54,274 bases of DNA from Promethearchaeota archaeon (GCA_008080735.1 SHMW01000002.1:1-54274), one strand, 5' to 3'. Shown: positions 2,542 through 23,721, numbered from the stretch's first letter. Notes: generated by a model not told the origin, from the letters alone. Translations and numbers: made by a program.

Positions 2542-3498
2542 TTAAAATGCAATATTCATGAAGAGCTCATCGATCCCTTGACCAGTTTGAGCGGATGTTT
2601 CAAAAAATTGGCAATTGTGCTTCATTGCTATTTCTTCCGCCCTTGTTCTCATGTGTCCTGCATCATCAATAAGATCCACTTTATTTCCGACTAAAATATA
2701 ATTAACGTCTGATTCCTTATTGAATAGATTTGCCTCATCGAACCAATCACTCACATCGTTGAGAGTTGCTTCTTTTGTATAATCAAATACAATCATGATT
2801 GTTTTCGCATCAAGTTTTTGGTAAAAATATTTCCGAATTTTTGCGAAGGTTTTGAGCCCTCCCATATCAAATAAATAGAGAGTAGATTTGATTTGTTGAG
2901 TTATTTGTAATTCCTTCTCCGCAATCGATATTCCGATTGTAGGCTTATACATTTCAGTGAATTTCTGTTTTGTATATAGGCGAGTTAAGGTGGTCTTCCC
3001 TACTTGGGATGACCCAATTACAAGTACATTTTTCACCGAACCACTATCGGAATTATGCGAATTAAAGCGTAATGTTCCATCCTCTAACAATTTTGGCAAA
3101 GCAGTGTCAATTTCTCTGTCATATAAGGCTAATGAGACTTTTTCGGCCACTAAGTAAGAATAAGGAATATATTTATCAATATCAGAATATGGGTCAGCAA
3201 CTAATACAAACAGAGCGGGTACATCTCCCCCCAGTTCAAGATAAAATAACCGAAACTCGTTTGTATCTAAGGTCCCACTTCCAAAAGAAGTTTCTGCAAA
3301 ACGCTTCACTTTGTTCATGGTTTGATCCAAGATTGCCATGATCGCCCCGATTATTTCCTCATCAAATCCCTTGATTGACTTTTGGGCAATGATTAAACCA
3401 TCCACATCTACTATCAGTGCTGCGGTTAATTCAGGTATGTTTTCAATGAAGTTTTCAAGAAGGTTGTCAAGAGTTTCGGTTTTAATCATTTTACTCAC
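2542..3498 (-). CDS. Roadblock/LC7 domain fused to a Rab/Ras-like small GTPase
   Basis: N-terminal roadblock pattern (AALIVDVDGLIIA); G1 GSSQVGKT, G2 YKPTIG, G3 DMGG, G4 NKVD, G5 SAQ; GTG start. Confidence 0.88.
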   Translation of the reverse strand: MSKMIKTETLDNLLENFIENIPELTAALIVDVDGLIIAQKSIKGFDEEIIGAIMAILDQTMNKVKRFAETSFGSGTLDTNEFRLFYLELGGDVPALFVLVADPYSDIDKYIPYSYLVAEKVSLALYDREIDTALPKLLEDGTLRFNSHNSDSGSVKNVLVIGSSQVGKTTLTRLYTKQKFTEMYKPTIGISIAEKELQITQQIKSTLYLFDMGGLKTFAKIRKYFYQKLDAKTIMIVFDYTKEATLNDVSDWFDEANLFNKESDVNYILVGNKVDLIDDAGHMRTRAEEIAMKHNCQFFETSAQTGQGIDELFMNIAF

Positions 3499-3506
3499 GC
3501 AAATTA

Positions 3507-4064
3507 TTAGGTATCTAAAATAGTATTTATCTTATTAATTCTCTTTTGAATATGCTGCATTGAATACTGAATATGCATTTGCATTTCTTTGATTTCTGAG
3601 AGAATTGATTTGATTGTTGAGATTTTCTTGTTAGAAATATGCTCCTTGCTAATTTTACTATTTACTTTATCAAGGGATATTTTTTTTCCTTCTATTTTTA
3701 GTTTCCGAGATTCCCCAGGATAATCTAAATCCATTCGGCCTTCATCAATTTCGCTAACAATAACTTTAAACTCTTCCGGTTCCCGTCCTTGTTTGATTAG
3801 TTCATAGTTGAAATTATAGAATGGCTTTTTGCTTTTCAGTTTACCCGCCCACGAAGATGCGATATATCGATGAAATAACCGGGATTTCGCTCCCGCCCAT
3901 ATCCATATTAAGCTCATATTTTTATCGATAATTAGGTACACTTCTTGAGGGTCAAATATGGTTTCAGGATTCTTTTTAATGTTCTCTCCAACCACTTTAT
4001 AAATATATTTAGTATATTTTTCACTAGCCATTCTTATTTCCCTCTTATATTTCTCCCTTTTCAT
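3507..4064 (-). CDS. Single gelsolin-domain protein with C-terminal coiled coil (true start may be ATG at 4031)
   Basis: Gelsolin-repeat pattern FDPQEVYLII..LIWIWAG..S and IKQGREPEEF; amphipathic heptad helix at the C-terminus. Confidence 0.75.
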   Translation of the reverse strand: MKREKYKREIRMASEKYTKYIYKVVGENIKKNPETIFDPQEVYLIIDKNMSLIWIWAGAKSRLFHRYIASSWAGKLKSKKPFYNFNYELIKQGREPEEFKVIVSEIDEGRMDLDYPGESRKLKIEGKKISLDKVNSKISKEHISNKKISTIKSILSEIKEMQMHIQYSMQHIQKRINKINTILDT

Positions 4065-4135: not shown

Positions 4136-6085
4136 TTATTGATAGAATTCATCTAAAGCATTCAAAAGCTCATGTAAAGTTTCTATTTGTGGGATCAGGA
4201 TAAATGTGCCTTGAATTTCTATATCAGTAATTATTACATTTGTCGTAATAACTAATGATAATTTTTTCAAGAACCCAATTTCTTGTTTTAACAGATTGAA
4301 TAATTTTTCCGCATTTTCAATGAGCACGTCGGGCGGTTCTGTCATGAAACGAATATCTAAGAGATCTCCGAGAGCAGTCACATAATTGGAGGCTAATATG
4401 TTGCCCAACTCTTCCATTGCACTCTGATATGTATCTGGAAAATCACTAATTGTATCATAGCGTTTGCGAAGGTCAACTTGTTTCTTTTTCTCATCATCAA
4501 CTAAAATAGCTGTCAATTCTATGATATCTCTAACTTCAAAGATCGTTAAAACGGTTGCCCTTGTCTTTCCTTTGACATTACTCCATGAGGTGTAAAGTTT
4601 CTCATTCTTTTGAATTACCTTTTCAGAATATTTGTCTAATTCAACCATCTCGACTGCTGGAATATCTATAGTGACTTTTTTATTAATCATCTTCGCAAGG
4701 GCATTTGCCGCATTCCCAGAACCAATATTACCAACTTCTCTGAGTGCATCTTTCTGACGCTCCGATAAAGCTAAGCTTTTTGCTCCGGCACCTGCTCCTT
4801 TTTCTCCTTTCATTAAAGGTTCATAGCTTATTCCAAGATTCTCAAAAAGATTATACAGTGTATCAAGATCTGGAATAAATAGGAAAACTCCATTAAGTTC
4901 ATAATCGACAACTTGTATTGACGTTTTAATCACCACTATAAAGGTATAGATTGACTCCAATTCTTTTCCTAGAAATCTTCCTAATGAATTTACATCGCTC
5001 ACAGTAAATTCTGGAACACCAGTCATCATTTTAGTATCAGTCAAATCTGCTAACGCTGACGCATAGTGTCCCGCCAATATGTTCCCCATTTCTGTTATTG
5101 TTGATCTTGCATATTCATCAATATCCTCTTTAGATTTCACTTTATCTGGATCTATATCGGAATCTTCGCCTGTGATAGATTTTACCATTTTCATAAGTGG
5201 TGTTAACTCAAATGCTTGGAATATGGTTGATTGAGAAGTGCCCTCAATTTGGGAGAAAATACCACAGACCTTTTGATTTGGACCTCCAAACTGTGCAGCC
5301 AAATTCTCAAATGATATGATGCCTACATTTGTTAGGTCAACATTGATCTTTTTCTTTATAAGTCTAGAAAGCGCAGTAATTGCGTTTCCAGAACCGATAT
5401 TTCCAATCTCCTTGAGCATATCTTCTTGTTCGTCATTTAAGTTAATCTTCTTATCAACATTTCCTGGTTTATCAATGATGTCATAGGTATCCTCGAAAGT
5501 CGAGATAATCTCCTCTTGATCCTTCCTAAAAATTGCCTTCTTTTCCGGTTTGAGAGTAGTAGGTTCTTTTGCCTCTGCTTGTTGTTTTGCTTTTTCCGTT
5601 TGATCTCGTCTATAGTTTTCATTGATATTAAAACTTCTAATAAACGCATCCAGATTTAGTAGAATATAAGTGCTTTCATTAAGAATGCCAATTGCATTAA
5701 TGAATTCAAAATCTAAATCTGTCTCAACAATTTTATTTGTATCGTTGAAAATTGACATTGGCACTTCTTGGACACCGATGACTTCATCAACTAGTATTCC
5801 TAAATTTAGCCCATTTCGCTCTAATAATAGAATTCTTGTGTCCTTATCCATCTCGTAGGTATTTTCTGCTGTGTAGATTTTTCTCCTGAGAGATAATATT
5901 GAATACAGATCGCCTCGTATATCTATCACACCAACAATTGATTTATCCGCGAGTGGAATTGGGATAATTTTTTCACCAGGAATATAAATTTCTTTTACTT
6001 TATTGACCTGTACCAAGTATTTTTCGTTTTTAACCCTAATAATAACGACATTAAGGTTCTTTTTGGTTGATTCTGCTTCGATCAT
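4136..6085 (-). CDS. CheW-CheC-CheC fusion protein
   Basis: N-terminal CheW (IVGVIDIRG, GILVDEVIGV); four CheC ExxN motifs (KEIGNIGSG, TEMGNILAG, REVGNIGSG, EELGNILAS). Confidence 0.92.
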   Translation of the reverse strand: MIEAESTKKNLNVVIIRVKNEKYLVQVNKVKEIYIPGEKIIPIPLADKSIVGVIDIRGDLYSILSLRRKIYTAENTYEMDKDTRILLLERNGLNLGILVDEVIGVQEVPMSIFNDTNKIVETDLDFEFINAIGILNESTYILLNLDAFIRSFNINENYRRDQTEKAKQQAEAKEPTTLKPEKKAIFRKDQEEIISTFEDTYDIIDKPGNVDKKINLNDEQEDMLKEIGNIGSGNAITALSRLIKKKINVDLTNVGIISFENLAAQFGGPNQKVCGIFSQIEGTSQSTIFQAFELTPLMKMVKSITGEDSDIDPDKVKSKEDIDEYARSTITEMGNILAGHYASALADLTDTKMMTGVPEFTVSDVNSLGRFLGKELESIYTFIVVIKTSIQVVDYELNGVFLFIPDLDTLYNLFENLGISYEPLMKGEKGAGAGAKSLALSERQKDALREVGNIGSGNAANALAKMINKKVTIDIPAVEMVELDKYSEKVIQKNEKLYTSWSNVKGKTRATVLTIFEVRDIIELTAILVDDEKKKQVDLRKRYDTISDFPDTYQSAMEELGNILASNYVTALGDLLDIRFMTEPPDVLIENAEKLFNLLKQEIGFLKKLSLVITTNVIITDIEIQGTFILIPQIETLHELLNALDEFYQ

Positions 6086-6120: not shown

Positions 6121-6984
6121 TTATTTAAATTTATTCTTAAGCATAATTCCTTTCCAAATTAACTCAATTTGAGACTTTCCATCATAAGACTCGGAAAAGA
6201 ACCCTTGCTGCTTATATATCGCTATTTGGCCACCATTGGAGTATTTATAAATATAATCGAGTAAATTTTCTATGCTACTGAAATTAAAACCCGCGACCTC
6301 CATTTCTTTTTCGTTATTGACGAGAACGATCAAGAGGTCTTCTCCATTAAATGGCTTTTCTAATTCATTCCATTCAACCCATAGTTCTTGTTCAACATCA
6401 TTCCCTCTTACAATAAATTTATCATCTATGGGTATATCTCTATAAGTTTTATAGGTGGAAAAAATAACTTTATTAGGAATCTTTCCAATTTCTTTCGAAA
6501 ATTTTGCTATTTTTTCTCCGGCATTAAAATAATATTCTTTATCAAGTATGTAATTACAGTTTATAAAAATATGTCTATTCTCCTTAATTTCTATAATATA
6601 GTCTATAAAATCATCTTTTTTTGTATCCGCTCTTATATGTACCGACTTTATTGAAATATCTTTTTGAGTTTTTAAGAATTTGAAAAATCGCCATTTTATT
6701 GCATCTTTATCATTCTTTTCTTTGCTGATAAATGTTTCATAGATTTTCTTGAATTGATCTTTATTAAGTTTCGAGAGATCCGCATCTTTTTCATTTTTAA
6801 AGTCCACTTCTATGAATGAACCATCGAATGGTGATTTATTCTCTTGTTTTAGTTTTTTTAGGCTAACTTCCCCCAAAAATAGCGCCAATTCCAGTTCTAA
6901 GATATTTGGGACTATTTCTTCAATCAGTGCAAATAAGGTTTCTTTCGATTTATCCAATAAAGTTTTATAATATTGAAAATTCAT
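6121..6984 (-). CDS. Hypothetical protein within the chemotaxis gene run
   Basis: 287-aa ORF with AGAGG upstream and 17/35-nt gaps to neighbours; no confident motif. Confidence 0.75.
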   Translation of the reverse strand: MNFQYYKTLLDKSKETLFALIEEIVPNILELELALFLGEVSLKKLKQENKSPFDGSFIEVDFKNEKDADLSKLNKDQFKKIYETFISKEKNDKDAIKWRFFKFLKTQKDISIKSVHIRADTKKDDFIDYIIEIKENRHIFINCNYILDKEYYFNAGEKIAKFSKEIGKIPNKVIFSTYKTYRDIPIDDKFIVRGNDVEQELWVEWNELEKPFNGEDLLIVLVNNEKEMEVAGFNFSSIENLLDYIYKYSNGGQIAIYKQQGFFSESYDGKSQIELIWKGIMLKNKFK

Positions 6985-7001: not shown

Positions 7002-10000
7002 TTAGCTTAATAGGTATGATTCTAATTTTTCTTGATCCATAATTTCTCCATCTTTGCTTTTCACATAATATCGTATTTCTCTTTCTTGATATGGGAGAAT
7101 CGATTCTACTGTGAATGAAATCATATCCGTTCCTTCAATTTCCGACTCCATAATTTCATATTTAGTATTAGCAGAAACAATTTCAAATGATTTAGAAATA
7201 GTATCATTGATGTCAATATCATTAACTTCGATATTTGAATTATTATTAATGATGATGCTTATTGCAAACTCATCAACATCTCTACCTGGAAATATTTCTT
7301 TCCCTATCAATAAATCTCTCCTCTTATGGGCAATATCTAACTTCGGAAGCTTTTCTGTTTCCAGAGACTCGTTCAAGTAATAGAAATTCTCGGGGCTCCG
7401 CTTTTCTTGTGGATAATAATGGGTGACTTCGAGTGGGAATTGATACGTTTTTTTGTGATTTGGTTTAATTGCCTTAAAGGGATATGAAATTTTAAGAAAC
7501 TCATCTACATCAATCAACACTTTTGATTTAATATTATCTAAATTGAGACTAATCTTAACATCGTGAGGAATTGAGTGATCCAGATTGTCAGGCACTACTT
7601 CAATGCTCACATGGTCTGAAATGTCTCTCCCCGAAGAAGTTGATATTTGGAATTGAGTTAGATCTTCTGGAGGAGCAAAATCTGCTGGAATAATATCTTT
7701 TACCATAATCCCTTTCATTGGGGTTGTTCCTATATTTTTAACAGTGATCTTGCTTTGAATTTCCGCTTCTTCAAAGGATTTAATTTCAGATTCAGAGAGC
7801 TTTTTATCCAAATGAATATCGATTATTTCGAATACCGATTCTTGTAATCTTAGATCAATAACAGCATTCTTTTTGACTGAATGAGTAATTGAATATTCTA
7901 GTTTTCTGAAAAATTTTGGTTCATTTTCATCTGCGACTTCCCATTCTTCACTTATAAATTTCTCTTGGGGTGCCAATAATTTTCCCCCATTTGAATTAAA
8001 ATCTATATCTAAATATTTTGTTTCTTTATCCTTATCCAAAACTAATATAGATTTTAATTCCATATCGATCTCACTATTATTTTTAAAAATTAGAGAGCAT
8101 CTCCATTTATTTGGCTCTGTCTCTTTCTCCTTTATCTGCATCGCATGCATCGCATGGGAATAGCCACGGAGGTGATCAATCTCTAAATTTGACATTATTT
8201 GGTTTTTATAAATATATGAAAGTTGAATATTCCCTGTTCCTATCATTTGTCTATTTTTAGGGCTGATACTAGTATATACAATAATTTCTGCTTTCTTTCC
8301 TGGTTCTAAAGAATTTATGGAAAAAATAAGGCTTCCTTTTTGAATTTCCACATCTGAAACCGATGAGCTATCATACTTAAAGTCCCTAAATTCCTCAGAA
8401 AATTGTTTTGCTATCCTTAGATCTTCTACAAGATCCTCTGAAGTATTTTCTATAAAGATTGAATACTTTAACCGATTCTCTTGATTAAATAAAAGAAAAT
8501 AGTTATCTCTTACAAATTCTCCTGTTATTTCATGATATCCTTCAAGAATTTTTTCTTTTCTTTCTTTTTCTTTTTGAGAGATTTCTTCTAATTTTTTATT
8601 GAGCTTATTTTCTTTTTGCTCATTAAGCTCAACAATCTTCGCCCGAAGAGAATTTATTTCAGATTCGACATTTTCTTTCTTTTCTTGCCATTCATCACTT
8701 TTTGTATTAATATTTTTCAAATTCTCTTGATTCTCTTTCAGTTGGGCCTTAAGTTCCTTAATTCGGGCATCATAAGTATCCTTAATTTTTTCAAGATGTG
8801 AAATTAAATTTTTTGTATTTTGGAGCTTTTCTTCAAGAGTTTCAATAGTGTCTTTCTTGGAATTATCGATCTTATTGTTTTGTGATTCCAACTCATTTTT
8901 CTTCTTGTCTTCAAGATCTTCTATATTGTCTTCCAAATCATCGATTTTGTCTTCCAAATCCTTTTGTCTCTCTGATTCCTCATCAGCTTTCTTTTCGGCT
9001 TCGTCAAGCTTTTTTTCAATCTCCTCAAATTGTGTTCGTTTATCGTTGATTTGTACATCAAATTCTTTTTCAACGATATTTATTTTTGCTTCATCTTCAA
9101 TATCTTTAGTCGCTTTTTTCTTCTCCTTTTCCAGGTTTTTAATTTCCTTCTTTTTTTCTTTTAGTTCTGTCTTTAATTTATCTTGTTTTTCTTCCCATTC
9201 TTCTTCTTTTTTCTTTGCCTTTTTATTATTCTCAATGCAATTCTCCATTTCTTTTCTCAATTTCTTTATCTTTGGATCATAGTGATTCAATATGTTTTCT
9301 ATATTCACCGCTTTCTTTTCTGAATATTCTGTCTTCACTTCTGGAATTCTTTCCGTGATCTGTTCCAATTTTTCTTTCGCGTTTTTTAGTTGGGTTTCGG
9401 TCTCTTCTTTAAATTGATTTTTATTAAGATATTTAGAAATGTTTTTTTCTTTGTATTTTTCTTTATCTTCAATTAAACTATCTATTTCTTTCTTCAATAA
9501 TCCTGCTTGATTGAGGAGTTTCTTGTTTTTTTGAGAAAGTTTTGAGATTTTGTCTAAAGCTTCATCTAATTCATTGTTTTTCAGATGTATTTTATCCTCA
9601 ACGGAACTGATTTTATGTCCATAAGACATTTTAATCTTTTTTTTTGTAGTTTCTCTCTTTTCTTGTATCTCTTGTTCAATTTTTTTTAGCTTTTTCTGCT
9701 TTAGCTTTGCTCCTAGATCATCGGTTTGAATATTCATTACTTTAATTTTTTCAAAAACTTTGATTGGATTGACTAAATCCTCAGAATCTTTTATTTGATA
9801 ATTGACTTTTTTATTTGTTTCTGGTTCAAAATTCCCCAGATTGATGATTTTATCTTTTTCTAATGAGAGGTTATCATCGGAACTATAATCTAATTTAACA
9901 TCCCAAATCCTATCTTTCTTTGAATTATTTAGAACGTTTATACTTCCTGTTCCAATAAAATTGATTAATGTACCATTTTTGCTATATTCATATTTTAAAT

Positions 10001-10172
10001 TCTCACTGTTGCTTACGAATACTTCTGATTTGGCAAAACCAAATTGTTTCTCAACATCTGATCTTCGTTCCTTAAGTAGATCAATTTCTTCTACATGTTC
10101 CAAGGGCGCTCCTAAAAATGCAGGAGCTTGACTAGAGACCAATTCATCTTTACTAATTTTTTTAAATCCCAT
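7002..10172 (-). CDS. Large soluble protein: beta-rich N-terminus, ~400-aa Lys/Glu coiled coil, several Ig-like/DUF11-like beta-sandwich repeats
   Basis: 1056-aa ORF; heptad K/E-rich region ~aa150-545; repeats of ITVKNIG..GIMVKDIIP and IIINNNS..DIDINDTI type; no signal peptide or TM helix. Confidence 0.75.
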   Translation of the reverse strand: MGFKKISKDELVSSQAPAFLGAPLEHVEEIDLLKERRSDVEKQFGFAKSEVFVSNSENLKYEYSKNGTLINFIGTGSINVLNNSKKDRIWDVKLDYSSDDNLSLEKDKIINLGNFEPETNKKVNYQIKDSEDLVNPIKVFEKIKVMNIQTDDLGAKLKQKKLKKIEQEIQEKRETTKKKIKMSYGHKISSVEDKIHLKNNELDEALDKISKLSQKNKKLLNQAGLLKKEIDSLIEDKEKYKEKNISKYLNKNQFKEETETQLKNAKEKLEQITERIPEVKTEYSEKKAVNIENILNHYDPKIKKLRKEMENCIENNKKAKKKEEEWEEKQDKLKTELKEKKKEIKNLEKEKKKATKDIEDEAKINIVEKEFDVQINDKRTQFEEIEKKLDEAEKKADEESERQKDLEDKIDDLEDNIEDLEDKKKNELESQNNKIDNSKKDTIETLEEKLQNTKNLISHLEKIKDTYDARIKELKAQLKENQENLKNINTKSDEWQEKKENVESEINSLRAKIVELNEQKENKLNKKLEEISQKEKERKEKILEGYHEITGEFVRDNYFLLFNQENRLKYSIFIENTSEDLVEDLRIAKQFSEEFRDFKYDSSSVSDVEIQKGSLIFSINSLEPGKKAEIIVYTSISPKNRQMIGTGNIQLSYIYKNQIMSNLEIDHLRGYSHAMHAMQIKEKETEPNKWRCSLIFKNNSEIDMELKSILVLDKDKETKYLDIDFNSNGGKLLAPQEKFISEEWEVADENEPKFFRKLEYSITHSVKKNAVIDLRLQESVFEIIDIHLDKKLSESEIKSFEEAEIQSKITVKNIGTTPMKGIMVKDIIPADFAPPEDLTQFQISTSSGRDISDHVSIEVVPDNLDHSIPHDVKISLNLDNIKSKVLIDVDEFLKISYPFKAIKPNHKKTYQFPLEVTHYYPQEKRSPENFYYLNESLETEKLPKLDIAHKRRDLLIGKEIFPGRDVDEFAISIIINNNSNIEVNDIDINDTISKSFEIVSANTKYEIMESEIEGTDMISFTVESILPYQEREIRYYVKSKDGEIMDQEKLESYLLS

Positions 10173-10225: not shown

Positions 10226-12313
10226 TTATTGTTCTATTTCTACTAAGCGTACAAGATCCTTCCTAAGGGAAGATATCAGATTTATGACATCTATTATCAA
10301 GCAGATAGAACCGTCACCAGTAATAGCAACACCTAATATGGATTGAAACTTTGAATATTTTGATTTAAACGGTTTAATAACCACTTCCATTTGTTGCAGA
10401 ATTTTATCAACAATGAATATTGCTGAATTGTGCTCATCCTTTTGACATAATATCGCAATTTTCTTTTTAGAATTATCATTGTTTATATTCAATTCTGATG
10501 ATTCATTTTCCGAAGAGAAATCAAAATATTCTCCTAATCTTATTACAGGGACCAATTCATTCGCGACTTTATAATGTTCCACTCCTTTTACATAATCAAT
10601 TTTTTCTCTATCATAGAAGTAAATCTGTTTGATATTATCTATGGGTACAGCAAAGAGATCTCCACCTACTTCGAATAATTGCGCCTTAAGAATTGCTCGT
10701 GTGAATGGGACGTCAATAGAAAATGTAGTTCCTTTACCAGGAGTGGTATAAAGATTAATCGACCCTCCTAATTCTTCTATCTTCTCCTCAACTATCGCTA
10801 AACCCATACCTCTGCCAGAAATTTGATTAGCAGCCCCTAAAGTTGAAAATCCTGGTTTAAAAATCAAATCCTTAAGGTCCTGATCTGTAAGTTTTTCAGC
10901 TTCCTCTGGAGTATATAATCCATTATTCACTGCTTTTCTTCGAATTCCCTCAAAATCTAACCCTCTTCCATTATCTTCCACAGTAATGTTAATTGATCCG
11001 GCTTTTCTTGTGGTTATCAGTTTTAATGTTCCTATTTCATCCTTTCCTTTTCTTTTTCTTTCTTTTGGGGTTTCAATTCCGTGATAAATCGCATTTCTCA
11101 GTAAATGGATAAGAGGGCTATTCAATTCTTCCAAGACGGTACGATCTATTTCCACATCTAAACCTCTAAGAACAAATTTTATCTTTTTCCCCGTATCCTT
11201 TGCAACATCCCTAACTAGTCTCCGATATCTCCTGAAAGTTTTTTCCACTCTCACTAATTTCAGTCGAAACACGATTTCTTGGATTTCTAAGAACAATTTA
11301 TCCATATTATCGAAAACCCGTGTTTCTTCTCTTCCTCTAGTTTCCTTCAATTGCTGGGAGATTTGATTCTTAAGAATAACCAGCTCGCCAAAGTAATCCA
11401 TTAATCTCTCCAGAGTTTCAATATCTACTTTCACTGAAGTTATTGTGCTTAATTCCTCTCCAAAATCATCATCTATTATAGATGAAATTCCTGTCTCAAA
11501 TGTTTCTTCAGCTTGATTGGTTTTTTGAGGTTCAGAAGCTGCCTTTTCTGCGCTAAACTCTTCGACATAACTATAAAATTCATTAGAACTAATTTCTTCT
11601 ATTTCTCTGCTTTCGATTTCTAGAATTTCGTCAATAGTAGCAGCGATTTTATCTTTTGTTTCTTTGGTCATAAAATAGATTTCAAAATCGTTGTCAAAAT
11701 TCCCCTTTTCTAATTTATCGGGGCTTGGGTTACTTGAACAAATCCGCCCAATCTCATTAAGCGCCCTGAATATTATAAATAACCTAACTTTTTTAAAAAC
11801 ACAAGTTGCTTGAATTTCAATTGCGATTTTATAAAAATTATAATTCTCTTTCTTCTCTTTTAATTTTTCTGGTGAAATTGGCTTATAAAACGTAATATCG
11901 TATTCTGACTTTTTATCCGCCTTATAATCTTTGAAAGTTTCTTCAATTTCCTGTAATACTTGTGCGTCTAAGTCTTTCTCGTTCCCTTTTTTGATACTAT
12001 TAACCAAATTCCTAATAACGTCATGGCTCTCAAATAAAAGATTGATATATTCGTCCTTCTTGTCTTTTCTTTTATTATATTTTTTGTTTTCGTCCAGAAA
12101 ATTTTCAAATATATGACAAAATTTAGAGAATCTGTCAAAACCTACCATCGCTGTTGAGCCCTTCAATGTATGGAATGCAAAGTAGAGATTTTGGATAGGA
12201 TCATCATCTTTGAAATTCTCCTCAAGGTCTAAGATATTTTTCTCAACCTTATTTACTAACTCTTCAGCCTCGTCAATAAATAATTTCATCTCTTTATCTT
12301 TTTTCGATGACAT
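10226..12313 (-). CDS. cheA: Chemotaxis histidine kinase CheA
   Basis: Hpt FHTLKG, P2 domain, HLLRNAIYHG, VEDNGRG, IFKPGFST, SGRGMGL, C-terminal CheW-like P5. Confidence 0.97.
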   Translation of the reverse strand: MSSKKDKEMKLFIDEAEELVNKVEKNILDLEENFKDDDPIQNLYFAFHTLKGSTAMVGFDRFSKFCHIFENFLDENKKYNKRKDKKDEYINLLFESHDVIRNLVNSIKKGNEKDLDAQVLQEIEETFKDYKADKKSEYDITFYKPISPEKLKEKKENYNFYKIAIEIQATCVFKKVRLFIIFRALNEIGRICSSNPSPDKLEKGNFDNDFEIYFMTKETKDKIAATIDEILEIESREIEEISSNEFYSYVEEFSAEKAASEPQKTNQAEETFETGISSIIDDDFGEELSTITSVKVDIETLERLMDYFGELVILKNQISQQLKETRGREETRVFDNMDKLFLEIQEIVFRLKLVRVEKTFRRYRRLVRDVAKDTGKKIKFVLRGLDVEIDRTVLEELNSPLIHLLRNAIYHGIETPKERKRKGKDEIGTLKLITTRKAGSINITVEDNGRGLDFEGIRRKAVNNGLYTPEEAEKLTDQDLKDLIFKPGFSTLGAANQISGRGMGLAIVEEKIEELGGSINLYTTPGKGTTFSIDVPFTRAILKAQLFEVGGDLFAVPIDNIKQIYFYDREKIDYVKGVEHYKVANELVPVIRLGEYFDFSSENESSELNINNDNSKKKIAILCQKDEHNSAIFIVDKILQQMEVVIKPFKSKYSKFQSILGVAITGDGSICLIIDVINLISSLRKDLVRLVEIEQ

Positions 12314-12344
12314 TGCAACAATTACCTCAGTTTTTTTTTCCTAT

Positions 12345-12731
12345 TTATTTATTATTTAATAGAGTTCTTTCTAATACTTCCAAAACTTGCTCATTTTTAA
12401 AGGGCTTTTGAATAAAATCTTTTGCTCCTTTTTTGGCAGCTTCCAAAACAAGTGCTTCTTGCCCTAATGCTGAAACGACGATTATTTTCGCATTCTCATC
12501 AAGTTGTAACAATTCCTCGATAGTTTCAATACCGCCTTTTACTGGCATAACCAAATCCATTGTGACAAGATCCGGTTGTACCTCTTGGTATTTTTTAATT
12601 GCCTCTTCTCCGTCTCCTGCTTCTGCAACAACCTCACTGAAATCAGTTTTATTTATTATCTTTTTTAAGATATTTCTGGTAAACTGGGCATCATCTACGC
12701 ACATTATCTTTTTTTTATTATTTTTTGGCAT
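12345..12731 (-). CDS. cheY: Chemotaxis response regulator CheY
   Basis: VDD, TMDLVMP, SALGQ and KPF motifs; 128 aa; adjacent to cheA. Confidence 0.95.
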   Translation of the reverse strand: MPKNNKKKIMCVDDAQFTRNILKKIINKTDFSEVVAEAGDGEEAIKKYQEVQPDLVTMDLVMPVKGGIETIEELLQLDENAKIIVVSALGQEALVLEAAKKGAKDFIQKPFKNEQVLEVLERTLLNNK

Positions 12732-12756
12732 ATTTATCTCCTTTTTTATTAAGTTT

Positions 12757-13347
12757 TTAATTTAAAGATTTAAGTTCTTTTTTTATCATTAATTGCTCAG
12801 TTTCGGTTAAAATTTTGCTTAAGTCCATCAATATTCGTGGTCTGTCCTCAAATTTAATAACACCTTTAATATATTCGATACTGATGCTGGTTTGGAAGAT
12901 CCCCCCCAAATCAACAATATCTTCAGTTTTAATTTGAGAAACATTGTAGATCTTATCCACGTAGAAACCAATATTTCTATTATTGACATTCACAATAATT
13001 ATGTATGTATTTTTGGAGTCTGAATCTTCTTTAGTTTGAGTTGGTGCTTTGGGCTTTTTCTTTTCTTCTCCTTCTTTTTGAGCTAATAGTTCACTTTTAG
13101 TTTTATAAAGGCGATAATCATCTAAATCCAATTTTTTTCGCAGATTTATTACATGGATAATCTCGCCTCTGTAATTATAAATACCATCGATGAAATCTAA
13201 ACTCTTTGGAAGTCTCCTAATTTGCCCTGCTTTGATAATTTCTTTTACATCCAGTAAATCAATTGCGAATTGTTCCCATCCAACTTCAAAAACAATAATA
13301 GAAACGTTTTCTCGCTCCTCATAAATTTCGTTCTGCATTTTTTTCAC
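12757..13347 (-). CDS. cheW: Chemotaxis coupling protein CheW (with charged insert)
   Basis: VKEII, GIYNYRGEIIHVINLR, IGFYVD. Confidence 0.92.
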   Translation of the reverse strand: MKKMQNEIYEERENVSIIVFEVGWEQFAIDLLDVKEIIKAGQIRRLPKSLDFIDGIYNYRGEIIHVINLRKKLDLDDYRLYKTKSELLAQKEGEEKKKPKAPTQTKEDSDSKNTYIIIVNVNNRNIGFYVDKIYNVSQIKTEDIVDLGGIFQTSISIEYIKGVIKFEDRPRILMDLSKILTETEQLMIKKELKSLN

Positions 13348-13365
13348 TTTTGTATTGAATTTATT

Positions 13366-14181
13366 TTATAGTTTAAAATATTGATTTAGTATATCTTCAA
13401 AATCTTCAAATGGAGAAATGTCTCCATTAAAATTCTTTAATTCGTTATCATAATTGCTGAAAAATTCATCAACAATCAAATACATATATCTTTTAAGTAA
13501 TTGATTAACTTTTTCGACAAGATATGCAAAAATAATATTTTTTTTAATTATTACATAAAATCTTTGATTTCCAAATACAATCTCTTTTAAATTCCCTCCC
13601 GATTCCTTTCCAATAATTTCTTTTGAAAAGGTCAATAAGGCAGATATAAATCCACTTATTTGGACATCTTTTTTCGCTAAATTTGCTTTCTTCTTGTCAA
13701 TTTTTGAAAAATATGGACTCCCGGAAGGGTTTAATATAAATATTCCTAACAAACCTTCGCTTCTTGGAATCTCCAAATATTCATTACATGATTCCTTAAC
13801 TTCTCCAGCGTCCATATCGGCGTTATATTGATTAAAAATCTTCCTTGAAACTAAATATAATTTTGTATAATTTACTTCACTTTCCTTATCGTCCATAAAA
13901 ATATTAACTATCTTGTTCTGGTTGCTATCTTCATAAAAATGAATAATAATAATATAATCATCTAAAGGAATAGTCGAATTCCCCTTAGTTTTTTGGGTAA
14001 TTTCACTTTTACATAACTCCATGATGTTTTGGATCAGGGGTACATCGAATCCCTTTTTATAAATAATATCATAATCGTGAGTCTTTCCTTCATTACAGAA
14101 TTTTAACATGCAAAATCCCATTAATTCAATAATGTTTTCCTTAAAGTCCATGTTCGATGCTTTATTTTTCATACCGATCAT
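13366..14181 (-). CDS. Longin-domain protein (C-terminal Mon1/Fuz/TRAPP-type longin; possibly a second degenerate N-terminal longin)
   Basis: IFILNPSGSPYF ... ISGFISALLTFSKEI ... FF.NY...L..FNGDISPFEDFEDIL, the pattern typical of Asgard longin domains. Confidence 0.72.
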   Translation of the reverse strand: MIGMKNKASNMDFKENIIELMGFCMLKFCNEGKTHDYDIIYKKGFDVPLIQNIMELCKSEITQKTKGNSTIPLDDYIIIIHFYEDSNQNKIVNIFMDDKESEVNYTKLYLVSRKIFNQYNADMDAGEVKESCNEYLEIPRSEGLLGIFILNPSGSPYFSKIDKKKANLAKKDVQISGFISALLTFSKEIIGKESGGNLKEIVFGNQRFYVIIKKNIIFAYLVEKVNQLLKRYMYLIVDEFFSNYDNELKNFNGDISPFEDFEDILNQYFKL

Positions 14182-14286
14182 TTTTCTTCAGTTCTAACCC
14201 TTTTTTTGTTAAAATAATGAAAAAAGATTGTGGATAAATAAAATAAAATTCCCACTTTTTTGGTTTAAATTTAAAAAACTTTTTGA

Positions 14287-15393
14287 TTAACTAGCCTCTT
14301 CTAGCTTTATTTTCTTTTTGCTTATCGTTTTGATTTTAGGTTTATCTGCGCTCCCTTTGACTCTTATACCTTCGGGTTCTGATTTGCTTTTTTGTTTTGC
14401 TTTCTTTTTTGTTTTTTTTGCGGTCTTTCCGTGAATATCTAATGATTCTTGTAGCTCCAATGCCAGTTTCTCCAGTCTCCTGCCTGTCGCCGAAATCTCG
14501 TCCATCGAAACTACTTGCTGATCTATTTCTGCTTTTACTTGTTCAAGCGCTCTTTCGTTTACTTCTTCATGCTCTTCGGCCTCTGAGAGCTCTTCTGTGA
14601 CTTCATCAATCGCTTGGACTGTAACTTCGATAAGTTTTTCAATATTTCGAATTTTTTCACTGGAACGTGCCACTGATTTTCTTGATTCTTCTGAAAGTTT
14701 TCGGACCTCATCCGCTACAACTGCGAATCCTCTGCCGTGCTCTCCTGCTCTTCCCGCTTCAATACTCGCGTTCAATGCGAGTAAGTTTGTCTCCTCAGAA
14801 ATACTGGTAATTATATCCATAACATCATCAATATCAGTTGTATGATCTAGAATCTCGTGGGCATTCTTATCAATGCCAGCCGCGTGCCTGTCAACTAATT
14901 TCAATGCTTTGACCTGTCCTTGGGCGGCTTTAACAAGCTTCCCTATTGTATCATCAATCTCGTGGGCATGTCTATCAACTTCCACTGCGCTTGCTTCTAA
15001 TTCTGCCGAGATATTTGCTACATTGATCGCAATCTCTTCCGCATTATCGACTAAATTCTCTAAGGAATGTTCGTGTTCTATGATTCTATTCTCAATAGTG
15101 ACGACAAACCCCATCACCATTATTAATCCTACATAAAACATGCTGAACGCTTCACCCATCATATCGAAAGCTAAAACGTCTGTGGAAAATCCATATTTGT
15201 CCAAGGCATTTGCAAGAGTATACATTGACCCACCGCAAGCAATTAAAAACCAGAAAATATCACTCAATGTTTTTCTTTTGAAATATATCCTCAGAGCTAT
15301 AATTGCAGAAAATATTGCAAAAATGAGAGCAATGAGGTTTAAAGTTCCATCTCTGTAATCTGCCATCAATTCCGCGGATATCTGTAGAAACAT
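14287..15393 (-). CDS. Methyl-accepting chemotaxis protein with 3 N-terminal TM helices and basic C-terminal tail
   Basis: Hairpin-tip signature [32 protein letters not shown]; three hydrophobic segments in aa20-100. Confidence 0.95.
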
Positions 15394-15672
15394 TTAAATT
15401 CCACCTCTTTTCATAAATGCACTATAATATTCATAGAATAGAGCAGATGCAAAGGTAATCATAGTCAACATTATAAATACATGTTCTAGAAGATTTAATT
15501 CCTCTAAGCCAGGAACGGCTTCTAAATTTGTGAATATAAACACTAACCAAATACACAAACCAGCAGGAATAAATTTTAATAGCTCTCTATATCTAATCGC
15601 CGCAGCACCTAAAGAAATAATTGCTATACACATCATAATCAAAACAATGACTTCTACTATTTCAATTGCCAA
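15394..15672 (-). CDS. Small 3-TM membrane protein, first gene of the chemotaxis run
   Basis: 92 aa, three hydrophobic helices; TTG start preceded by GGTGA; stop abuts the MCP ATG. Confidence 0.75.
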   Translation of the reverse strand: MAIEIVEVIVLIMMCIAIISLGAAAIRYRELLKFIPAGLCIWLVFIFTNLEAVPGLEELNLLEHVFIMLTMITFASALFYEYYSAFMKRGGI

Positions 15673-15966: not shown

Positions 15967-16620
15967 ATGATTGCTAAAGACCAAATTAGTCATAATGATG
16001 AGGAGAGTTATGAAAAAGTAACTCTTGAATGTCCTATATGTGGAACTCGTAATAATTTACGCATTCCTTGCAAAATCATTAATGAAAGTAAACAATTAAC
16101 GACTATATCAATACCGAGGGGGCTTGTGTGCGATCATCATTTTCAAGCCTTCGTGGATAAAAACTTTCAAACTCGTGGCTATCAAAAGATTGATTTCGAG
16201 CTTTCCAGTATGGAATTTTATGAACAAAACATAGAACAAACTTCTGGGGATCAGGTGCAAAACCTCTCTTCCATACCAGCGTTCGAAGAAATCCTTAATT
16301 TATTACGCACAGCAGTTAAAGATAAAGACATTTTGGGGAGCGCTATCCTCACGGTAAATGGGAAAGTATTATATTCCTCATTACCAGAAAATACTCTTTT
16401 TAATACGATGAAGGAATTTGAAGTTAGAAACGAGAAAGAATTAGTAGCAGTCCGGCGTATGTTCCTGGAATTGGAAAATCGGATGAAAATTTGTTCTAAC
16501 TACATGGAATTGAATGATGTGAATTTTATTCTTGTCCTAGTTTTTTCTAAGAAAATAAAATTGGGAATGGGAAATTTGTTATTAAAAGATTTGTCGAAAA
16601 AAATTATTGCTAAAGTCTAA
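15967..16620 (+). CDS. Zn-ribbon plus roadblock-like domain protein
   Basis: CPICG...CDHHF metal-binding motif; C-terminal ILGSAILTVNGKVLYS and LGMGNLLL roadblock-like pattern. Confidence 0.65.
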   Translation: MIAKDQISHNDEESYEKVTLECPICGTRNNLRIPCKIINESKQLTTISIPRGLVCDHHFQAFVDKNFQTRGYQKIDFELSSMEFYEQNIEQTSGDQVQNLSSIPAFEEILNLLRTAVKDKDILGSAILTVNGKVLYSSLPENTLFNTMKEFEVRNEKELVAVRRMFLELENRMKICSNYMELNDVNFILVLVFSKKIKLGMGNLLLKDLSKKIIAKV

Positions 16621-20098: not shown

Positions 20099-22060
20099 TT
20101 ATAATTTAATTTCTTTTTTATTGGATCCAAATTGGATAAGGATTCGCTTTTTCTTGATATTCAATTTGATATCTCGAGGGTATGCTCCTCCAATATGTTC
20201 TTTTTGTATAGAAATATTATATTTTTTTAATTCTAACTTTAATTTCTCCAGAATCCGTTCTACCGAATTATATTTTTTATTGAATATCTGAGCCCCACCA
20301 ATTATACACGCAGTTAGTTTTTCTGAAGCTCCATTTATTAACATTTTTTTTGTTAAGAATGGGACACAAAACTGAGCATATTGATGTTTATTGGTTAGCT
20401 CATCTTTTTTCTGGCCCTTTCTTGGTTTCAAATACATTATGTGAGACATAGCATAGATTTGATTCAAATTATCACAGAGAATTAAAATATATGTTGATCC
20501 AATTCCATTTATAGAAATTTTCTTTGGAATGTGTTTTGAATTATCTTTTGAGGAAGATATGACATATTGGCCAAGGGGTAAAATATGGTCCTCCTCTTTG
20601 TATCCATATTTCAAGACTTTAGCCTCTGATATATGATTTTCTGACGATCCTTTTCTGTTTTTGTATTTTTCAAAGTTTTTTATTTTGTGTTGGAATTTTT
20701 CTACTTGCTTTTTGAACATTTCCTTCTCAATACGAAGCAATTCATTTTTCATTTCATAGCTCTCCCATTTCTTTTTGATAAATCTTCTCTCTTTTTCAAA
20801 TAAGAGCAGGGTATTTTCAAAATCTTTTTTCTGTTCTTGAAATTCTTTTTTTTCCTCTTCGAACTTAAGGATAGCTTCATTTAACTTTTTTCTCTGTTGT
20901 TTAAGAAAGAATAGTTCTTTATTTATTCTAGTTCTAAATTTTTCCAATTCTGCTATCTGTTGCTCATAAATTTCTGATTTTGAAGGTTTTGAAAGAATAT
21001 TTGATATATTTATCAAATTTTTAGGTTTTTTAATTGGGTTTGACTTAATAATTTCTTTATCTGGTTCTTCTTCTGGACTTTCCTTTTTTATTGAAATTTC
21101 AGAAGGTTGTAAATCATCATCTTTTTCTTGAAGGCTTATAGTTTTGTACTTATCCATTATCTTGTCATTAATCCTCGTCTCTAAATTTGCCAGATCTTTT
21201 AATCGCTGAATACTCTTTTCATTTCCTTCTTTCAAATTAGGTAATTCCCCTTTTACATAAATATGGTTGGTTGGATCTACTAATTTGAACGTTTTTTGGC
21301 CATTCAATCGCTCCGTTTTTCCCAATATTAAAAAACCCCCATCATTCAAATACGTTTTTAGATTTCTTATTAAATGGTTTCTCGAAAGCAGATTAATATA
21401 AATAATAAAGTTCCGGCATAAAATAATATCGTATTTTTGTGATTTTTCATGGCAGATAGTAATATCTTCATTGATGAATTCTACTTTATTTCGAAGAGCT
21501 TGGTTTATCTGGTATTTTGTTGTTGAATTAGAAATCTTGGTAAAATATTTTTTTAAATATTGAGGGGGTATCTCGTGAAGCGCATGTTTCCCGTAAATCC
21601 CCTTTTTTGCTTTTTTTATTGCTTGAGAATTAATATCGGATGCTACAATTTTATACTCTGGGAAATCAGAATTTTCAGCTTTTAACTCTTCAAATAGAAT
21701 TGCCAATGAATATGGTTCTTCTCCATTTGCACAAGGACAAGACCATACTTTTATTAAGCTATTCTTAGTCAATTGATATTTTTCTAATAACTCCCCAATT
21801 CTCTTAAAAATTTCATAATTTCTGAAGAAATATGAATAATTTATTGTAAAATTGTCTAAGAATCGCTCTATTTCCAAGGGATTCGTCTTAAGATATTCGA
21901 AATATTTTTCTTCTGTCTTTAGATCTAAAGAACGAATTCTGGCCCTTATCCTTTTTTCAATTAATCTTTCTTGATAATATTCGAATTTAATCCCCGTATA
22001 CCTATTTATTTCTTGGAGTATTTTTTCGTAGTAATCTTTCTGTATTTTTATAGAACCAAT
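20099..22060 (-). CDS. cheR: CheR methyltransferase - coiled coil - CheD-like fusion (start uncertain; frame open to 22096, ORF track starts at 21877)
   Basis: In-frame upstream CheR N-domain (RYTGIKFEYYQERLIEKRIRAR..YLKTNP), TINYSYFFRN, WSCPCANGEEPYS, DIILCRN; C-terminal CheD-like GIGST..AMSHIM..IIGGAQIF..HIGG..R. Confidence 0.88.
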   Translation of the reverse strand: MGSIKIQKDYYEKILQEINRYTGIKFEYYQERLIEKRIRARIRSLDLKTEEKYFEYLKTNPLEIERFLDNFTINYSYFFRNYEIFKRIGELLEKYQLTKNSLIKVWSCPCANGEEPYSLAILFEELKAENSDFPEYKIVASDINSQAIKKAKKGIYGKHALHEIPPQYLKKYFTKISNSTTKYQINQALRNKVEFINEDITICHEKSQKYDIILCRNFIIYINLLSRNHLIRNLKTYLNDGGFLILGKTERLNGQKTFKLVDPTNHIYVKGELPNLKEGNEKSIQRLKDLANLETRINDKIMDKYKTISLQEKDDDLQPSEISIKKESPEEEPDKEIIKSNPIKKPKNLINISNILSKPSKSEIYEQQIAELEKFRTRINKELFFLKQQRKKLNEAILKFEEEKKEFQEQKKDFENTLLLFEKERRFIKKKWESYEMKNELLRIEKEMFKKQVEKFQHKIKNFEKYKNRKGSSENHISEAKVLKYGYKEEDHILPLGQYVISSSKDNSKHIPKKISINGIGSTYILILCDNLNQIYAMSHIMYLKPRKGQKKDELTNKHQYAQFCVPFLTKKMLINGASEKLTACIIGGAQIFNKKYNSVERILEKLKLELKKYNISIQKEHIGGAYPRDIKLNIKKKRILIQFGSNKKEIKL

Positions 22061-22206: not shown

Positions 22207-23721
22207 TTAATAATATGATTTCTGAACCAAGAAATCTCTAATTTTATAATTTGGGAGTATTCTATCAACTACTCCCTCTTCGATTGCGAATTTTGGCATC
22301 CCAAACAGAATTGCTGTTTCTTCTGATTCACTAATAGTAATTCCACCATTTTCATGAATCTTTTTCATTCCATTTACGCCATCCTCCCCCATTCCAGTAA
22401 GAAGGATAGCTATAACTTTATTTTTATATATTTCCGAGGCAGATTCAAATAAAACATCCACAGAAGGAACACATGAATTAACTGGTTTTCCTTTGTAAAG
22501 TATAATACATGGGCTTTTTTTTTTAGTGCTAATGCTAATATGTCTTCCACTAGGTGCAAAATATACGGTGCTAGGCCTTAAAATTTCATAATGTTCTGCA
22601 ACTTTTACCTTAATCTCACTATTCTTATTTAAATACTGTGCGAGTGGAGAGATAAAATGTTCATTTAAATGTTGGACGACAATGATTGGATAGGGAAAAT
22701 TTCGTGGTATACCTTGAAGGATCATTCTCAATGCTTTAGGTCCCCCGACACTTGCACCTATTACCACGATTTTAGAATCGATTTTTGGAATCTTTCTCCC
22801 TGATATAGTTTTAAAATATTTTTTAGGTTGGCTATCTTCTATTCTGATTTTTTGAGTTCTGATATCTTTCTTATGCTCAATTTCCTTAAGGATACTCTGT
22901 TTATGAACTGACTTATCAGATTTTTTCTCTCTTCTCTTCTCTTTCCTTAATAGGTTTTGATATAATACATCAATATTATCCTTATCATCAAAAGATGTAC
23001 TTTTACCCCGCTTTTGTATATCGCTTTCAATTTTTTTTGGTTTATCAAGATTTTCATGGAGTCTATTTTTATATTCTTTTTGTAATTCCGATTGCCCTTC
23101 GATATCTTCCTTACTTATTTTATTATCCGTTACTTGTTTAGGTTTTTTTTTATATTCTACATAATTTTCCGCCTTAAAGACATTTTTACTTTGTATTTTA
23201 GAGGGTTTTATCTCTTTAAGATATTTTCCAAATTCAAAAACCTCGTCCACCCACTGTTGCCGAAAAGGTAAATTCCCCGTCGAATCTTTTTCATATTCCA
23301 TCTTACCATAAATTTTATTAAATCGGGAATTTGATGCTAATAAAATCTTCTCAATAAGATTCTTTCTGAAATCAGGGAGTTTTTTCGCACCTAAAGTCCC
23401 AGGTTTCAGTATATAATCAAATGCTCCAATCAATAATGCTTGGACGGACGAATCCAGAGTTTGAGGGCTAATACTCGACAAGATGATCGTGGGTGTAGGG
23501 TTTTCTGCCATGATTCTTCTAAATGCCTCAAGACCGTTTATTTTTGGCATCATTAAATCCAATAGAATTACATCAGGATTTTGATAAATCGCTTTCTTTA
23601 TGGCTTCTTTACCATTTTTGGCAGTTCCAATTAGGACAATCTCATCAGAAGAGCTTAAAATTTCGGAGATTCTTTTCCTTAAGAACGCGGAATCATCAGC
23701 GATTAATACGCGTGTTTTCAA
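22207..23721 (-). CDS. cheB: Chemotaxis methylesterase CheB with extended charged linker
   Basis: Receiver ADDS/DLMMP; esterase triad motifs GASVGG, VVQH, LTGMGEDG; FGMP. Confidence 0.95.
   Translation of the reverse strand: MKTRVLIADDSAFLRKRISEILSSSDEIVLIGTAKNGKEAIKKAIYQNPDVILLDLMMPKINGLEAFRRIMAENPTPTIILSSISPQTLDSSVQALLIGAFDYILKPGTLGAKKLPDFRKNLIEKILLASNSRFNKIYGKMEYEKDSTGNLPFRQQWVDEVFEFGKYLKEIKPSKIQSKNVFKAENYVEYKKKPKQVTDNKISKEDIEGQSELQKEYKNRLHENLDKPKKIESDIQKRGKSTSFDDKDNIDVLYQNLLRKEKRREKKSDKSVHKQSILKEIEHKKDIRTQKIRIEDSQPKKYFKTISGRKIPKIDSKIVVIGASVGGPKALRMILQGIPRNFPYPIIVVQHLNEHFISPLAQYLNKNSEIKVKVAEHYEILRPSTVYFAPSGRHISISTKKKSPCIILYKGKPVNSCVPSVDVLFESASEIYKNKVIAILLTGMGEDGVNGMKKIHENGGITISESEETAILFGMPKFAIEEGVVDRILPNYKIRDFLVQKSYY

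Follow-up and report, generated by a model that had tools for sequence, protein, structure and literature searches.

We analyzed a window of 54,274 nucleotides from a Promethearchaeota archaeon (GCA_008080735.1, SHMW01000002.1:1-54274). Our subject was a gene that we call longin2, which lies between the gene of a methyl-accepting chemotaxis protein (MCP) and cheW, within a same-strand chemotaxis cluster that ends in the gene of a small GTPase. A sequence-only reading of this DNA had placed a longin-domain gene between these two neighbors, 18 nt from cheW, and the coordinates of the open reading frames (ORFs) agree with that placement (Table 1). The stop codon (13366-13368, minus strand) is counted inside the gene. 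On the receptor side, longin2 is preceded by a longer spacer of 105 nt. This spacer is a possible internal promoter of longin2, because the gene opens the operon in several relatives (loci L010 to L013 and L016).

We found 70 homologues of longin2 (183 to 279 aa, E ≤ 2.4e-40), and all of them come from Promethearchaeota-type metagenome-assembled genomes. With this many homologues at this level, the ORF is not due to chance. All 70 are unnamed or "hypothetical," and none carries a precomputed Pfam domain. The mean column identity in an alignment of 48 family sequences was 53%. We found no match for longin2 in NCBIfam, and a search of the PDB chain sequences with the family profile returned no match at E ≤ 10.

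We modeled longin2 with AlphaFold2 (AF2), using the 48-sequence alignment. The model (predicted local distance difference test [pLDDT], 80.9; predicted template modeling score, 0.77) has two domains with an identical order of elements. The first consists of strands at residues 22 to 28 and 37 to 43, a helix at 47 to 63, strands at 67 to 73, 76 to 84, and 90 to 98, and helices at 105 to 120 and 125 to 135. The second consists of strands at residues 144 to 150 and 156 to 161, a helix at 172 to 190, strands at 199 to 203, 206 to 213, and 216 to 222, and helices at 227 to 249 and 256 to 268. Both domains thus have the order ββ-α-βββ-α-α with no helix before the first strand, which is the longin order. 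In addition, the fold searches found whole-domain similarity to solved longin domains. Because the element order and the fold-search matches agree, we concluded that both halves of the modeled protein are longin domains. The sequence-only reading had recognized a longin pattern in the C-terminal ~130 aa and a like layout in the N-terminal half, and it had named structure prediction as a way to check them; the AF2 model gives longin topology in both places. Two other folds were considered and rejected. The Roadblock/LC7 fold (MglB type) has the order α-ββ-α-βββ with an N-terminal helix, which the model does not have, and the profilin fold was absent from all three fold-search result tables.

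The top Foldseek chains for longin2 were Mon1, Ccz1, Fuzzy, and Inturned subunits (E values of 2e-5 to 4e-4), followed by single longins, roadblocks, and the Lokiarchaeota Roadblock-Longin protein 8yqg. When the N-terminal domain was searched, the scores were 11.4 for the Lst4 longin, 11.1 for 8yqg, 10.4 for the C-terminal domain of a Loki Rag-like GTPase, and 10.1 for chains of the folliculin and GATOR1 complexes; the Z gaps between longin classes are within ~1 to 2 units, so the class is not assignable. We found a single Pfam match in longin2, to Fuz_longin_1 (PF19036) at residues 147 to 235, with 14.1 bits and an E value of 0.057, which is below the gathering cutoff of 26.1. The same family was matched at E ≤ 1 in 9 of the 48 family members (best, 0.018). 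The ESM Atlas model of longin2 gave template modeling (TM) scores of 0.80 to 0.83, normalized by the matched protein, against Promethearchaeota clusters that carry Fuz_longin_1. A few family members had other scattered subthreshold Pfam matches (YNR034W-A-like, PilZ-like, and others), which we took as chance.

The best single-domain structural matches were to TRAPP, Sec22b, VAMP7, and the sigma and zeta subunits of AP and COPI. Such matches would be expected if longin2 were a membrane-traffic longin of the SNARE, coat, or TRAPP type that acts on vesicles or protrusions and has nothing to do with signaling. However, we saw no SNARE motif and no hydrophobic segment when the sequence was read by eye, no Bet3/V4R or coat gene was present among the scanned neighbors, and the conserved neighbors are signaling genes. 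We consider this reading highly improbable. We give as small a chance to a small-molecule sensor, in which two PAS/GAF-like alpha/beta domains would bind a cytoplasmic ligand and feed an MCP that has no sensing domain of its own. Both readings are weakly supported.

To place longin2 among its relatives, we surveyed 161 genomes of the Lokiarchaeia class, taking a best E value of ≤1e-60 as a full-length longin2 profile match and an E value of ≤1e-140 as a CheA ortholog. We found a full-length longin2 match in 95 of the 161 genomes, many of which have two or three copies, and a CheA ortholog in 46. In 40 of these 46 CheA-type genomes, longin2 and cheA share a contig and strand, and longin2 precedes cheA by ~1 kb, with cheW and cheY lying in the interval. 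Synteny was another check proposed by the sequence-only reading, and this arrangement is its outcome. The same arrangement is present in G065, where the CheA match is truncated. The position and strand of longin2 in the cluster are conserved across genera, and we confirmed the gene orders in L009 to L014, L016, L031, L041 to L043, and L045. The exceptions differ in kind. G054 is at a contig edge, the operon of G067 has decayed and its cheW is truncated, G100 has only fragments, and G080 has a partial CheA on another contig. In G006, the operon begins with cheW and has no longin2; in G041 (L036), the MCP gene directly precedes cheW, again with no longin2, and the che operon and GTPase are retained. 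Conversely, G070 (L037) and G105 (L038, the same as L015) have kept longin2 and a divergent 217-aa neighbor, and neither locus includes an adjoining che cluster. The gene after longin2 in G105 is a cheB-like one of which a 3' fragment is left, and this suggests that the genome lost the whole che operon by deletion. In both G070 and G105, the best GTPase matches are at the paralogue level only. We concluded that longin2 encodes a soluble tandem-longin protein that is lineage specific and is a putatively cotranscribed part of the Lokiarchaeia chemosensory cluster.

Table 1. Features of the chemosensory locus, in positions of the window
Feature	Position	Strand	Basis
ATP-grasp protein, Ins134_P3_kin (inositol 1,3,4-trisphosphate 5/6-kinase family)	127-1038	+	Pfam, E 5.9e-14
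Roadblock-Ras/Rab-like GTPase, 318 aa; last gene of the same-strand cluster in the window	2542-3498	-	Ras E 3.2e-34
185-aa protein	3507-4064	-	Pfam subthreshold only; kept downstream of CheW-CheC in relatives
CheW-CheC/CheX fusion	4136-6085	-	CheC E 1e-39, CheW E 1.4e-21, CheX E 1.5e-11
X287, 287-aa orphan, kept in cluster	6121-6984	-	No Pfam or NCBIfam match; synteny
X1056, 1,056 aa, Lys/Glu-rich center, DUF11-type domains, kept in cluster	7002-10172	-	DUF11 E 1.6e-9; synteny
cheA	10226-12313	-	Pfam Hpt, P2, H-kinase_dim, HATPase_c, CheW
cheY	12345-12731	-	Pfam Response_reg E 3.5e-27
cheW	12757-13347	-	Pfam CheW E 1.6e-27
Spacer, longin2 stop to cheW start, 18 nt	13348-13365	-	Coordinates (cheW ORF starts at 13347)
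longin2 (tandem-longin protein), 271 aa, ATG start	13366-14181	-	ORF, homologues, AF2 model, fold searches
C-terminal longin domain, residues 142-271	13369-13758	-	AF2 model
N-terminal longin domain, residues 20-139	13765-14124	-	AF2 model
Spacer, MCP gene to longin2, 105 nt, A+T-rich	14182-14286	-	Sequence
MCP: membrane-spanning N terminus (read by eye), short signaling domain, Lys-rich tail	14287-15393	-	MCPsignal E 3.2e-29
hyp92, small hydrophobic 92-aa protein that accompanies this MCP type	15394-15672	-	No Pfam family
Zn-ribbon + Roadblock-fold protein, 217 aa, divergent from operon	15967-16620	+	AF2, Foldseek
LCIB/C beta-carbonic-anhydrase-like protein, 264 aa	19130-19924	-	E 5e-33
CheR-CheD fusion, 592 aa, ~280-aa Lys/Glu-rich linker between domains	20099-21877	-	CheR E 8.1e-45, CheD E 1.6e-13
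cheB	22207-23721	-	CheB_methylest E 1.7e-58, Response_reg E 9.8e-22

Two further genes of the window recur near the cluster in relatives: the ATP-grasp gene in L010 to L013 and the LCIB/C-like gene in L009, L013, and L043. We did not find CheF (PF04283) or archaellin (PF01917) in the genome from which the window comes (93% complete), where the positive controls matched.

The 217-aa gene that diverges from the operon adjoins longin2 in the window and in L010, L011, L015, L018, L037, and L045. Its AF2 model is modest (6 sequences; pLDDT, 61.1) and has an N-terminal Zn-ribbon and a C-terminal domain of the order α-ββ-α-βββ-α. The top Foldseek matches of this protein are all Roadblock proteins (9jue with an E value of 5.8e-5, then LAMTOR and MglB).

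We also found a sister subfamily, with 31 to 37% identity to longin2 (44% for the member in L040), whose fixed context is other than che. Here the order is longin2, a 118-aa gene, and a 161-aa gene in 12 loci (L019 to L024, L026, L029, L030, L032, L033, and L040), as established from ORF sizes, the sequences of six loci, and tblastn for L040. The ESM Atlas groups the 118-aa protein with Roadblock clusters (score, 0.91). The protein had no Pfam match; against the Roadblock domain of the GTPase, hhalign gave a probability of 0.2%, which is not significant, and BLASTP gave no alignment; its family profile had only a chance-level match in the PDB. BLASTP between it and the 217-aa neighbor of the window gave an E value of 4.1. 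Pfam places a Zn-ribbon at the C terminus of the 161-aa protein, which has hydrophobic N-terminal segments when read by eye. In L021, a gene with HisKA and receiver (REC) domains lies between MCP and longin2, and ORFs matched by size only lie at the same place in L020, L022, L023, and L026. The second locus of G041 (L040) holds a che-clade copy of longin2 that adjoins a Roadblock-like gene and two Zn-ribbon genes; the clade comes from a neighbor-joining tree (Biopython) without support values and is a rough grouping only. On contig 7 of the window's own genome (L047), we found a 118-aa Roadblock-like gene (8244-8600, minus strand) and a Zn-ribbon gene (7604-8155, minus strand) with no adjacent longin2. 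Two tandem ORFs of 139 aa that look like single longin domains by sequence (4934-5353 and 5538-5957, both plus strand) lie ~2 kb from this Roadblock-like gene.

According to one model, longin2 works with a Roadblock protein and a Zn-ribbon protein anchored in the membrane as part of a signaling module that is independent of chemotaxis, and the che cluster would be one home of several. The gene order shared by the 12 sister loci argues for this model, as do the che-clade copy of G041 in exactly that context, the Roadblock-like and Zn-ribbon pair in the window's own genome, and the fusion of Zn-ribbon and Roadblock domains next to longin2 in the window. In contrast, the Roadblock identity of the 118-aa protein comes from language-model similarity only, hhalign and Pfam being negative, and the model does not explain why longin2 is so tightly linked to cheW in 40 of 46 genomes. 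We regard it as distinctly unlikely.

The GTPase gene at the far end of the cluster encodes a Roadblock domain (Robl_LC7, 25 bits; cutoff, 23) followed by a Ras-family domain. The sequence-only reading had reported a Rab-like GTPase in the same run as longin2, and both the Pfam domains at 2542-3498 (minus strand) and the gene order in relatives support it. To follow this gene, we scored 14 candidates per genome and took at least 46% identity over a protein of ~320 aa as the ortholog level. In 20 CheA-type genomes, an ortholog shares the contig and strand of cheA and lies 6.7 to 9.7 kb beyond it; in 2 more, again on that contig and strand, the distance is ~20 to 21 kb, which makes 22 genomes. 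In 10 fragmented assemblies, it is on another contig, and in G067 it is far away. The order in L045 is that of the window: hyp92, MCP, longin2, cheW, cheY, cheA, X1056, X287, CheW/CheC, the 185-aa gene, and the GTPase. The GTPase ends the cluster in L043, where a cheR-like gene precedes it. In L041 and L042, cheR/B/D/C-type genes stand before the GTPase and a cheB-like gene stands after it, and in L044 the GTPase is ~14 kb beyond the counterpart of the 185-aa gene.

Other observations also link the longin2 family to small GTPases. Genes of the Roadblock fold are frequent divergent neighbors of longin2, and the grouping of the 118-aa protein with Roadblock clusters counts in the same direction. 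In L028, the family member is directly followed by a Gtr1/RagA-type GTPase gene (10846-11778, plus strand) and a longin-Arf-type GTPase gene (11821-12855, plus strand); two REC-PAS histidine kinases and a receiver protein precede it. Among 36 multidomain relatives of the C-terminal domain, we found three fusions of a longin with a small GTPase, one fusion of a longin with Roadblock, and two proteins with OmpA, and the fusions favor a GTPase link. Three distant multidomain relatives of this domain (P0298, P0333, and P0332) pass the Fuz_longin_1 cutoff.

Previous work describes longin and roadblock dimers as platforms for small GTPases (PMC10933270) and, in Myxococcus, a chemosensory pathway that controls a small GTPase via a roadblock protein (PMC2907295). 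From these pairs, the cluster's own Roadblock-GTPase, and the Frz/MglB/MglA precedent, we tentatively favor a model in which longin2 is a pseudodimeric longin platform that couples the receptor array to the Roadblock-Ras GTPase of the cluster, comparable to Frz-MglA/MglB. We see this as a possibility that falls somewhat short of probable. According to this model, the two longin domains of one chain would form a two-domain platform like the longin and roadblock dimers elsewhere. The platform would bind or regulate the GTPase, perhaps together with the neighboring Roadblock-fold protein, so that a signal from the MCP/CheW/CheA array or from phosphorylated CheY (CheY-P) would change the nucleotide state or location of the GTPase. 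The result would be an archaeal counterpart of the Myxococcus Frz-to-MglB/MglA circuit in an organism in which we found neither an archaellum nor a CheF output.

A number of our results weigh against this model. We found no ortholog-level GTPase in 13 of the 46 CheA-type genomes (14 candidates scored in each), and in G062 none of all 83 candidates scored reached that level. In the window, the GTPase gene is ~10 kb from longin2, at the far end of the cluster, and longin2 is at the receptor and CheW end. The GTPase may need no other platform, because it has a Roadblock domain of its own. G041 has retained its che operon and GTPase and has no longin2 between MCP and cheW. A G-domain profile detected small-GTPase genes no more than 10 kb away in at least 2 of the 12 sister loci (L023 and L032) and in at least 4 of the 28 loci scanned (L023, L028, L032, and L039); these counts are lower bounds, and the Rag-like gene of L028 was missed. 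Unlike the tri-longin Rab guanine nucleotide exchange factor (GEF) subunits, longin2 has two domains, which fill residues 20 to 271, and not three; superposition of the whole chain on such subunits gave root mean square deviations of 16 to 20 Å and TM scores of 0.23 to 0.28. We identified no catalytic signature in longin2, which counts against a GEF. As for the signature of longin GTPase-activating proteins (GAPs), the only form of a GP motif in the 48-sequence alignment is in the C-terminal domain, where an invariant G154 is separated by one residue from P156, which is present in 34 of 48 sequences; nothing like it precedes the second strand of the N-terminal domain. No arginine is invariant across the 48 sequences. 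At position 165, in the loop between the second strand and first helix of the C-terminal domain, 34 sequences have R, 13 have K, and 1 has Y, and R231 (≥90%) is in the second helix. Finally, according to PMC10933270, the small GTPase genes of MK-D1 generally do not share operons with roadblock or longin genes.

The strongest rival to a GTPase platform is an adaptor at the level of the array, with no GTPase involved. Here longin2 would bind MCP, CheW, CheA, or CheY-P and play a coupling, positioning, or output role, as CheF or CheV-type proteins do. The gene's place between MCP and cheW, with only 18 nt to cheW, is consistent with this, and so is its adjacency to cheW-cheY-cheA in 40 of 46 genomes. 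Both subfamilies also occur downstream of the same receptor genes. The family members of L009, L014, L019 to L023 (sister loci), L043, and L045 have a related MCP upstream, and tblastn found hyp92 matches directly upstream of that MCP, as in the window, in all of these except L014 and L043, which have the MCP only. Genes with receiver domains are common neighbors: cheY in the che type, HisKA-REC in L021, REC-kinases in L028, and REC matches in L039. Moreover, CheY-P would need another target, because CheF was not found in the window's own genome. On the other side, we know of no solved longin that binds Che proteins. G070 and G105 retain longin2 without che genes, G041 and G006 have the same operon without longin2, and no che gene lies within 10 kb of many family members. 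We judge an adaptor of this kind to be somewhat unlikely.

Within the GTPase platform model that we favor, a GEF for the GTPase of the cluster, the role to which the sequence-only reading pointed, is plausible. The sequence does not tell a GEF role of longin2 from that of a GAP or a passive scaffold. A more specific version of the model has longin2 at the array switching the GTPase, as a GEF or GAP, on a CheA/CheY signal, with the GTPase then directing a putative gelsolin-type protein of the cluster and the actin cytoskeleton; we think that version unlikely. The most conserved segment of the family is the first helix of the C-terminal domain (residues 172 to 190; 13612-13668, minus strand), with a mean top-residue frequency of 0.81. 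The same helix has the lowest confidence within the folded part of the AF2 model (pLDDT, 53 to 57) and might be an interface that needs a partner.

The longin2 profile was also searched against 1.84 billion representative proteins. The 28 matches at E ≤ 1e-30 are the family itself, and there were 418 at E ≤ 1e-3; among the matches listed (150 of the 418), those weaker than ~1e-10 nearly all cover only profile positions ~142 to 268. The window's own genome has 13 paralogous C-terminal longin domains in ORFs of 136 to 1,117 aa (loci L002 to L008). Several of these paralogues form the C terminus of proteins of 370 to 520 aa (e.g., L004, L005, and L007) that look hydrophobic in their N-terminal part; these would be membrane proteins with a longin domain attached. 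ORFs with the N-terminal domain only (profile positions ~8 to 139) are found beside full-length members at G147:C13:54626-54991, G134:C113:28761-29153, and G146:C21:35219-35602 (all plus strand); the one in G134 contains a stop codon. The representative proteins P0224, P0228, and P0235 likewise consist of the N-terminal domain only.

The genomes of Asgard archaea hold dozens of genes for longin, roadblock, and small-GTPase proteins. Previous work predicts 41 longin domains in one Lokiarchaeon and states that Asgard gene order seldom reveals regulator-GTPase pairs, with no cellular role known for any (PMC10933270). Chemotaxis genes are known in Lokiarchaeum ossiferum, and chemoreceptor arrays have been seen there (PMC9834061). 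Our literature search found no published account that places a longin gene within a chemotaxis operon of an Asgard archaeon; the che-gene Table S4 of PMC9834061 was outside its reach and may list the locus. The search also gave no earlier description of a tandem-longin family that keeps a constant place between the receptor gene and cheW, where the cluster includes a Roadblock-GTPase. Conserved gene order ties the tandem-longin protein, the Roadblock-GTPase, and the Roadblock-fold protein to a complete chemotaxis system, with no archaellum or CheF detected. This small, defined set of proteins makes two questions testable, namely, whether Asgard longins regulate GTPases and what the output of Asgard chemotaxis is. 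If the link to the GTPase holds, the coupling of a sensory pathway to small GTPases, a hallmark of eukaryotic chemotaxis, would predate eukaryotes. If the more specific version of the model, which we think unlikely, is true, the closest relatives of eukaryotes would use a chemoreceptor pathway of the bacterial type to drive a polarity module built on a small GTPase of the eukaryotic type.

Several known systems can be set beside longin2. The solved Asgard longin domain 8yqg comes from a Lokiarchaeota archaeon. The 8yqg protein combines a Roadblock and a longin domain and dimerizes, whereas longin2 combines two longin domains, and the identity is 12 to 14%; we know of no chemotaxis context for 8yqg. 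Like the tri-longin Rab GEF subunits (Mon1, Ccz1, Fuzzy, Inturned, and HPS1/4), longin2 has several longin domains per chain, and its only Pfam match, subthreshold as it is, is to their first longin domain (Fuz_longin_1). The identity to single-domain longins (TRAPP core 7b6d chains E and H, sedlin, synbindin, Sec22b, VAMP7, AP sigma, COPI zeta, and SRX) is 8 to 19%. Unlike SNARE, coat, and TRAPP longins, longin2 lacks a SNARE motif, has no gene of a coat or TRAPP partner in its vicinity, and lies in a chemotaxis operon. Longin GAPs have a GP motif at the end of the loop between the first and second strands or at the start of the second strand, with an arginine finger beside it (PMC12290439). 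The motif and finger of the longin GAP complexes (FLCN-FNIP and Lst7-Lst4, GATOR1 Nprl2-Nprl3, and C9orf72-SMCR8) are not clearly present in longin2.

The two remaining comparisons are bacterial. The Streptomyces conservon consists of a sensor kinase, a Roadblock protein, a DUF742 protein, and a Ras-like GTPase; it differs from the cluster studied here in having a roadblock, not a longin, and a histidine-kinase-like sensor in place of an MCP/CheA array. In the Frz/MglB/MglA system of Myxococcus xanthus, the mglB gene is not known to be part of the frz operon. MglB is a roadblock homodimer and not a tandem longin, and the output of the system is pili and gliding motors.

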